Source of the DNA: a virus
Lineage: Duplodnaviria > Heunggongvirae > Uroviricota > Caudoviricetes
Strand: one strand, 5' to 3'
DNA: 64,000 nt
IMG/VR virus record: IMGVR_UViG_2703718777_000015
A program made the position numbers and the translations under genes. The notes under the pieces were generated by a model that was not told where the DNA came from, made no database searches, and saw nothing but the letters and a program-made list of their open reading frames with translations. Positions 25,483 through 26,457 of the stretch are shown here, piece by piece. How positions within the stretch are numbered: the first letter of the stretch is position 1; each line of letters opens with the position of its first letter.

Positions 25483-26457
25483 TTATCCGTTACCGCGCGA
25501 CGGTTTCTGCGTGATAAACGTCTCAAGCATCTTTTCCGCAATTGCCGACCAGGTGTGACACTGGACCTTTTCAGCATTTTTCACGCGATCAACGCGAGCA
25601 ATAACCTCATCCCAATCAATCCGCGACTTGATAACCATATGGTTCACCAAAGCCAGGCGATCTGGCGGAAGGCAATCGGGAGGCGTTAATACCAACGCCC
25701 CGCACATTGCCGCCTCAAGTACAGTTAATCCAAGGCTTTCGGGATGCGTAACGATAAACACGTCACTCTTACGCAATTCAGCTGCAAATTCGGTTGCTGG
25801 TACCGGCGTCCGTCTGTATGGGGTTACCGATATATTCCCCGGATCAATGGTAATCAATCCGTCATCGGTCAACGTTCTGGCCTCATACGGAACGGTCAGA
25901 CGCTGAAGGTTCATAAGGATACTTAAGGAGTGATCAAACCCACTAACATCAAATGCAGCGTGGTCTACAAAAATACGCAGAACATCGTCTGTTTTGGTTT
26001 CCAGATGGAACAGATCCTGATTCGCTGCCCATCCAACATGTTTGTTAAAGCGATTATGACGCTCTAACCTGCCTGGATTATCCAGGTACCGCCAGGTATC
26101 ATCGCGGACAGTAAAAGTAATATCGACTGGTGCCGAATCCAGCATAGAACCGTCGTATACCTGGGCTACCCATCCAGTGAATCGACGACGCAGTTGCACG
26201 CCTATTTCCCTGGGCACCGTAGTAAAATACCGCAATCCTGGCGCTAAAATGGCTTTCGCAGAACACGAGGTCGCAGCGGTCAACACAGCTTCAACATAAT
26301 CCTCCGGGCTTTCGACGCCGGGAGAATATGGACGATGGTATTGCAATGTTACCCCAGCCTCACTAAAGGCGCAGGCCAGGTTGTAAGCCCACATTTCCGT
26401 ATATGTTTTCACATCACTGATAGCTTCAAATTTTCGCCCAATGATCAGGATGTTCAT
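25483..26457 (-). CDS. GT-B fold glycosyltransferase (GT1/GT4-like)
   Basis: C-terminal ESLGLTVLEAAMCGALVLTP motif; GAGGA 8 nt upstream; last gene of the ban operon. Confidence 0.65.
   Translation of the reverse strand: MNILIIGRKFEAISDVKTYTEMWAYNLACAFSEAGVTLQYHRPYSPGVESPEDYVEAVLTAATSCSAKAILAPGLRYFTTVPREIGVQLRRRFTGWVAQVYDGSMLDSAPVDITFTVRDDTWRYLDNPGRLERHNRFNKHVGWAANQDLFHLETKTDDVLRIFVDHAAFDVSGFDHSLSILMNLQRLTVPYEARTLTDDGLITIDPGNISVTPYRRTPVPATEFAAELRKSDVFIVTHPESLGLTVLEAAMCGALVLTPPDCLPPDRLALVNHMVIKSRIDWDEVIARVDRVKNAEKVQCHTWSAIAEKMLETFITQKPSRGNG

Follow-up and report, generated by a model that had tools for sequence, protein, structure and literature searches.

The window analysed here is a stretch of 64,000 nt, one strand of a tailed-phage genome (Caudoviricetes; IMG/VR record IMGVR_UViG_2703718777_000015), and the gene under study, dbn, is encoded on its minus strand. 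On one side dbn follows ban, the gene of a DnaB-type replicative helicase, and on the other it converges with the baseplate gene 5, from which it is separated by a hairpin that may act as a bidirectional terminator. In the window as in phage P1, a tail/baseplate operon separates dbn from a second block of genes, pmgO to pmgQ, at a distance of 5.9 kb (Table 1). The dbn product is predicted to be a glycosyltransferase of the GT-B fold, and its homologs in other phages lie with those of pmgO, pmgP and pmgQ. We propose here, as a new hypothesis, that these four genes form a widespread phage glycosylation cassette.

The gene itself is the ortholog of P1 dbn, which is already known and annotated, and the finding as first stated is ordinary. 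The initial annotation had presumed that the P1 ban operon contains no glycosyltransferase gene, and had stated beforehand that the claim would fall if P1 carried an identical gene in this place; essentially that gene is present, with 96.8% identical DNA. A 1.3-kb query comprising the gene and both of its junctions matched 18 phage records over its full length. Identities at the DNA level were 99.5% for SJ46, 98.5% for RCS47 and 96.8% for P1 and P7, the last value covering 1301 nt that span gene 5, dbn and ban; the position is common to these four phages and the window, and so is the orientation in P1, P7 and RCS47. The protein is 96.9% identical to that of P1 and P7, with a range of 96.9–99.7% across the copies of P1 (AAQ14048), P7 (AAQ07543) and RCS47. 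In the P1 record AF234172, dbn (72659-73657, between ban and gene 5) is described as "function unknown, possible glycosyltransferase", an annotation that dates back two decades, to 2004. The P7 counterpart in the same place is named glt, "putative glycosyltransferase", and the RCS47 copy is listed as 'putative glycosyltransferase Dbn' and in RefSeq as "glycosyltransferase family 4 protein". Compared with these three, the window gene shows allelic differences only, apart from the annotated start of P1, which lies 8 codons further 5'.

Table 1. Features of the window discussed in the text, with the basis of each assignment (coordinates count from the first letter of the window).
Feature	Coordinates	Strand	Basis and remarks
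dbn coding sequence	25483..26457	minus	ATG 26457-26455, TAA 25485-25483, 324 aa; open reading frame list and sequence
Alternative in-frame ATG of dbn	26479..26481	minus	overlaps the ban stop codon as TAATG; 332 aa, 8 extra codons; used in the GenBank annotation of P1
Shine-Dalgarno sequence GAGGA	26465..26469	minus	7 nt 5' of ATG 26457; read from the sequence
Hairpin between dbn and convergent gene 5, candidate bidirectional intrinsic terminator	25436..25462	either	folding energies
ban, DnaB-type replicative helicase	26481..27851	minus	Pfam DnaB_C 1.6e-107, DnaB (N-terminal) 2.6e-35; P1 annotation
Sigma-70-like site inside ban	27091..27118	minus	coincides with predicted P2dbn of AF234172; weak evidence only
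tRNA, Met-type, CAT anticodon (tRNA-Ile2 in P1 annotation)	28133-28207	minus	ban transcription unit
Lipoprotein, 275 aa, SPFH-type	28234-29061	minus	annotation of related records; 5' of ban, where P1 has tciA-tciB-tciC
tRNA Thr(TGT)	29731-29806	minus	ban transcription unit
tRNA Asn(GTT)	29809-29884	minus	ban transcription unit
pmgO, MptE-like/Maf-like	18886..19548	minus	sub-threshold Pfam MptE-like; PHROG 4603 'alpha-2,3-sialyltransferase' 4e-74
pmgP, second MptE-like/Maf-like protein	18362..18988	minus	proposed cassette partner
ppp, lambda-type protein phosphatase	17688..18380	minus	Pfam Metallophos 4.6e-16
pmgQ, GT8-like (GT-A) glycosyltransferase	16990..17691	minus	GT8 profile matches, DxD, PHROG 1962 'glycosyltransferase'

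Taken alone, the sequence evidence that Dbn is a glycosyltransferase is borderline. The Pfam search gave no match to the N-terminal GT4 domain PF13439, the NCBIfam search gave nothing useful, and among the PHROGs the protein falls in the unnamed family phrog_2518. Sequence searches of solved structures, with the single protein or with the family profile, returned noise or generic Rossmann proteins (KtrA), with no glycosyltransferase at E<0.1 for the family profile, and were not used. An AlphaFold model computed from 17 homologs (predicted local distance difference test 88, predicted template modelling score 0.85) consists of two Rossmann-like domains with a cleft between them, the arrangement of GT-B enzymes. 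A Foldseek comparison with the PDB yielded 72 matches at E<=1e-3, headed by GlgM, sucrose-phosphate synthase, tetrahydrobiopterin glucosyltransferase, PimB' and BshA. The fold of the model is GT-B, nearest to the retaining GT4 enzymes, and the GT1/GT4-like GT-B protein of the initial annotation is borne out by this model, by these matches and by the motif described below. Structural matches to GT4 transferases of sugars and lipids come ahead of those to the T4 alpha-glucosyltransferase and the DNA glycosyltransferase of phage HY126, two enzymes that share with Dbn the GT-B fold and a phage origin.

The C-terminal domain carries the motif THPESLGLTVLEAA, an EX7E motif whose glutamates (E248 and E256 in the 332-aa numbering, E240 and E248 in the 324-aa numbering) are both invariant in close homologs. 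Across 53 diverse members, down to ~21-25% identity, the first Glu is conserved in at least 90%, and no variation occurs at the second Glu, at an Asp-His pair, or at one Phe and one Gly. GT4 enzymes usually carry Gly-Arg/Lys at the place where Dbn has this Asp-His pair, which follows the first strand of the C-terminal domain according to the secondary structure of the model, read without residue-level superposition. Sequence identity to the GT4 enzymes PimA/PimB', BshA, GlgM, sucrose-phosphate synthase and WaaG/WaaB is only 10-15%. The Dbn family is small and discrete from mainstream GT4: grouping at 90% identity leaves 23 clusters, and of 1.84 billion representatives 376 match at E<=1e-3. Some of the relatives are multidomain fusions of 520-630 aa. 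We infer a soluble, cytoplasmic, retaining enzyme of the GT4 type that is catalytically active.

Among P1-like phages dbn is under strong purifying selection. The gene is intact in 80 of 81 loci, the remaining one running off the end of its contig, and the 55 alleles have a median ratio of nonsynonymous to synonymous polymorphism (pN/pS) of 0.12, the ratio for the window versus P1 being 0.11. In the laboratory, neither plaque formation nor anti-restriction depends on it. Knock-down by CRISPR interference showed that none of dbn, pmgO, pmgP, ppp and pmgQ is essential (PMC10695390), and in-frame deletions of dbn, pmgO, pmgP, pmgQ, ppp and pap each gave infectious virions, which were restricted on EcoA, EcoB and EcoK hosts (type I systems only) like the parental phage, itself plating there at 10^-1 to 10^-3 (PMC9024508). 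A literature search found no functional study of dbn or of pmgO, pmgP and pmgQ.

The gene neighbourhoods of Dbn homologs outside the P1 group, searched with the window proteins as queries, point to a partnership other than the helicase. Two IMG/VR scans were dominated by near-identical P1-like contigs, and the informative part is a minority of divergent loci, designated here by L numbers. Homologs of pmgO, pmgP and pmgQ were present in all six non-P1 phage lineages that have a dbn homolog, and in four of them they are contiguous with it: the lambdoid loci L008 (PmgO-PmgP-(extra GT-A)-Dbn-PmgQ) and L095 (O-P-Dbn-Q), the phage locus L096 (P-Dbn-Q-O) and the E. coli phage EP_H11 (L100, O-P-Dbn-Q). 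In the 95-kb Citrobacter-type phage-plasmids L007 and L009, O-P-Q stand together and Dbn lies ~5 kb away. Further divergent IMG/VR loci with PmgP (13/13) have the O-P-Q triad and no Dbn. What lies between P and Q varies: besides Dbn, this slot can contain an additional GT-A, a GT2-like protein or an S-adenosylmethionine-dependent methyltransferase, and in P1-like phages it is filled by ppp, which nothing found here ties to a glycosylation function. From the contents of this slot, and from the triads that lack Dbn, it follows that Dbn is an optional module of a conserved core. Linkage of dbn to ban is specific to the P1-like phages, and outside them a link to a helicase or replication gene is not conserved. 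The window itself contains the core, namely two MptE-like genes and one GT8-like gene (16990-19548), and no genes for sugar-nucleotide synthesis or export accompany the cassette.

Among the products of the core genes, PmgP resembles Maf, which is its best structural match, as well as MptE and Cst-I. PmgO and PmgP are minimal domains and lack the extensions with which Maf binds its substrate. A PmgQ profile searched against solved structures matched the Skp1 alpha-galactosyltransferase (7.7e-6) and glycogenin (~2e-3), and the DxD motif is invariant in the PmgQ family. The PmgP family is much larger than that of Dbn, with more than 328 clusters, and its named sources are all Proteobacteria.

Dbn-like proteins with 38-52% identity were also found at four independent bacterial loci, each of which has an MptE-like/WaaZ_KDO_III gene next to the Dbn-like gene, either directly or one small open reading frame away. 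On a Colwellia metagenome contig the surrounding genes encode an ABC-2 transporter, Poly_export and GT1 proteins, and on chromosome 3 of Brucella pseudogrignonensis they encode Wzz-like, KpsM-like and KpsT-like proteins and further glycosyltransferases. The Dbn-like gene of a third contig is paired with a methyltransferase and a GT92 fusion, and that of a fourth with a hexapeptide acyltransferase. KpsM/KpsT-type ABC exporter genes occur at two of the four loci. A scan of species-representative genomes returned three loci only, one of them informative (that of B. pseudogrignonensis). The bacterial homologs sit in capsule-type polysaccharide loci, and the recurrence of the MptE-like and Dbn-like pair in such loci is the best evidence for a sugar acceptor of Dbn.

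We consider it somewhat probable that Dbn is an optional glycan-extending enzyme of the PmgO/P/Q cassette and has no role in replication; its partnership with these proteins, the donor, the acceptor and the target are all points that we infer. The constant core would consist of PmgO and PmgP, Maf/MptE-like proteins whose fold is that found in WaaZ and other CMP-ulosonic-acid transferases, together with the GT8-like PmgQ. In P1-like phages the cassette would be split, and dbn would be its fourth enzyme, displaced behind ban, with which it shares transcription under the C1-repressed ban promoter, while a ribosome-binding site of its own serves its translation. During lytic growth the enzymes would draw on the nucleotide sugars of the host. 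In E. coli K-12, PmgO and PmgP would probably act as transferases of a CMP-ulosonic acid of the 3-deoxy-D-manno-oct-2-ulosonic acid (Kdo) type, and Dbn may add a hexose-type sugar to an acceptor that the MptE-like enzymes either make or use as well, thereby lengthening a short glycan.

As the final acceptor, the Kdo/inner-core region of lipopolysaccharide (LPS) is our leading, if tentative, guess; a phage virion protein comes next and appears doubtful, and DNA seems decidedly unlikely. The LPS core is attractive because no phage transporter or exporter would be needed. The waa set of LPS core enzymes comprises the same three classes as the cassette, with WaaZ (KdoIII, MptE-like) in place of PmgO and PmgP, WaaO/WaaR/WaaJ (GT8) in place of PmgQ and WaaG/WaaB (GT4) in place of Dbn, a resemblance at the family level only and without close sequence similarity. 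The restriction of named PmgP sources to Proteobacteria fits a dependence on CMP-Kdo or LPS, all hosts are Gram-negative, and P1 adsorbs to the terminal core glucose of LPS (PMC8546580). The locus differs from gtrABC-type conversion loci, in which glucosylation relies on the flippase GtrA, the bactoprenol transferase GtrB and the membrane protein GtrC: none of these is found beside dbn, the neighbours being ban and baseplate gene 5, and Dbn is predicted to be a soluble GT-B protein. More broadly and more tentatively, a modular cassette in P1 and many temperate phages of Proteobacteria may build an oligosaccharide that differs between lineages and is probably of the Kdo type, carried either by the LPS core or by a virion protein.

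Several observations weigh against this proposal. Classification with profile hidden Markov models, a check named in the initial annotation, gave no significant assignment: Pfam Glycos_transf_1 (PF00534) matches Dbn over the C-terminal 87 residues only and with 25.1 bits, just under the cut-off of 26.4. The Pfam MptE-like matches of PmgO and PmgP likewise remain below the curated cut-offs. In P1, dbn and pmgO-pmgQ lie in two separate transcription units, and gene linkage in general is suggestive of a shared pathway, not proof of it. The positions of the cassette in other phages are mixed: it stands between capsid and connector genes in L105/L106, after TerL-portal in L109/L111 and directly before the terminase in L008, L095 and L113, and elsewhere it lies near ligase/PolX (EP_H11) or a primase-helicase (L114). 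As regards LPS, the cassette genes of P1 are located behind C1 operators and should be silent in lysogens, and the N-terminal domain of Dbn is not cationic (pI, or isoelectric point, 6.1), unlike that of typical membrane-facing GT-B enzymes, which is weak evidence. As regards a virion protein, two recent electron cryomicroscopy papers on P1 mention no glycans.

The alternative that survives best, unlikely as we hold it to be, is that PmgO, PmgP and PmgQ, with or without Dbn, act in the cytoplasm as O-glycosyltransferases on a protein of the capsid, tail or fibre that has yet to be assembled. Mycobacteriophages possess clusters of this kind, in which several phage glycosyltransferases are grouped, in many cases close to structural genes, and are not needed for plaque formation; their enzyme families and hosts differ from those of the P1 cassette. 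The adjacency to head and packaging genes in the lineages named above is in line with such a role, and the P1 stretch pmgL-pmgQ lies downstream of an annotated late promoter. Adjacency to head genes was dropped as proof of virion glycosylation, since other lineages have the cassette near ligase/PolX or primase genes, that is, near replication genes. The best structural match of PmgP, Maf, is a protein O-glycosyltransferase, but the substrate-binding extensions of Maf are missing from PmgO and PmgP. The GT8 enzymes that PmgQ matches best have protein-linked glycans as their substrates, and a cytoplasmic reaction would make a transporter unnecessary and agree with the non-cationic N-terminal domain of Dbn. 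Against these points, dbn belongs to an early operon, and the proteomics of the P1 virion, like the electron cryomicroscopy papers, report no glycan, which is absence of evidence only.

A second explanation is that Dbn works apart from PmgO/P/Q as a stand-alone accessory enzyme, targeting for instance a tRNA, a small molecule or some protein of the host, and that the genes co-occur through a shared insertion hot spot. Consistent with it, P1 dbn is transcribed apart from pmgO-pmgQ, in an operon with tRNA-Met(CAT), tRNA-Thr and tRNA-Asn, and the P-Q slot also takes unrelated cargo such as the Ppp phosphatase. Such independence is improbable in view of the co-occurrence in 6/6 non-P1 lineages with Dbn and of the Dbn-like and MptE-like pair that recurs at four unrelated bacterial loci, and no tRNA genes lie beside the homologs elsewhere.

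The initial annotation had also suggested that co-expression with replication genes would fit DNA glycosylation or surface modification in lysogenic conversion. Surface modification may apply. On the DNA reading, Dbn would glycosylate a base in phage DNA (or another nucleic acid), by which the phage would evade nucleases; this is poorly supported and very improbable. Known sugar hypermodification requires a hydroxymethyl or hydroxy base; no pathway to such a base is annotated in the P1 regions examined or beside the homologs in other phages, and none is known elsewhere in P1. It is true that phage glycosyltransferases related to LPS enzymes can hypermodify 5-hydroxymethylcytosine (bioRxiv 10.1101/2023.12.21.572611), and that dbn follows a helicase gene in P1 and the cassette of EP_H11 and L114 stands near genes of DNA metabolism. 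The linkage to ban, however, is not conserved, the closest bacterial relatives are found in polysaccharide loci, and the deletion mutants of dbn, pmgO, pmgP and pmgQ are restricted as wild type, on hosts that already restrict the DNA of wild-type P1 10- to 1000-fold (PMC9024508). That dbn is an inactive or decaying remnant without present function, as its laboratory dispensability and the sub-cut-off Pfam score might suggest, is hardly credible for a gene that is intact in nearly all P1-like loci at the low pN/pS given above and whose catalytic-type residues are invariant down to ~21-25% identity.

If the proposal of an extending role for Dbn in the PmgO/P/Q cassette is true, the four genes share one function and represent a new kind of self- or host-glycosylation for phages of Proteobacteria, in a pathway that looks common among the prophages of Proteobacteria, including enterobacteria and Pseudomonas. 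A modified LPS would be relevant to the way in which P1-like phage-plasmids, which are also spreaders of resistance genes, mask receptors and exclude superinfecting phages. A modified virion would extend phage glycosylation beyond the mycobacteriophages.

With regard to the gene boundaries, the native start of dbn is probably ATG 26457 rather than the start annotated in P1 (26481), and this probable correction is new with respect to earlier annotation. The downstream codon is better supported because the distant homologs all begin at its position (MK/NILIIG), and because seven P1-like contigs (L084-L086, L088-L091), in which an open reading frame of 101 aa is inserted between ban and dbn, become similar to the window exactly at the equivalent of ATG 26457, with AAGGAG before it. 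The inserted reading frame (e.g., L088 7699-8004) matches nothing in Pfam and runs into the dbn ATG through an ATGA overlap. The spacer from the ban stop to ATG 26457 measures 23 nt, one base less than the 24 bp of the initial annotation, whose other statements on the gene's setting held up: dbn is the terminal gene of the ban transcription unit, it has a ribosome-binding site of its own (GAGGA), and the hairpin that follows it looks bidirectional. This candidate terminator, 11 bp with a G+C core, starts at the stop of gene 5 and 20 nt past the dbn stop, and has U-rich flanks on both sides. Its folding energy is -17.6 kcal/mol on the minus strand (z -4.1; equalled by 0/200 shuffles) and -18.7 kcal/mol on the plus strand (z -2.5). 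It was absent from a simple terminator scan because the scan counts the T-run as stem.

In the P1 record AF234172, the transcription unit begins at the C1-repressed promoter P1ban and proceeds through tRNA genes and tciABC to ban and dbn. The sigma-70-like site inside ban is the sole promoter-like match in 25000-28500, a range in which 4.3 are expected by chance. The tRNAs of the P1 unit are also present in the window. Where P1 has tciABC, the window has the gene of the SPFH lipoprotein, as do several other P1-like genomes, and the cargo of the ban operon therefore differs among P1-like phages.

Some minor observations concern the pmg genes and the Dbn family. The pmgO and pmgP reading frames overlap by ~100 nt (18886-18988) in different frames; both ends are conserved in other phages, whose homologs overlap less. 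In P1, pmgO, pmgP and pmgQ are annotated as 'putative morphogenetic', a role that nothing found here supports, and the 'norphogenetic protein' of RefSeq entries for PmgP homologs is a propagated typo of 'morphogenetic'. Two records, ON470615.2 (L102) and ON470617.2 (L103), contain an apparently diverged dbn with 82-85% identity and were ignored as frameshift-fragmented; dbn, the baseplate hub gene and other neighbours are in pieces there, most likely through uncorrected sequencing frameshifts. Finally, the Stenotrophomonas jumbo phage RAS14 (OP752703, 320 kb; L101 5590-7248) encodes a hypothetical protein of 552 aa, in which one region matches the C-terminal half of Dbn with 27% identity (E 4e-19).

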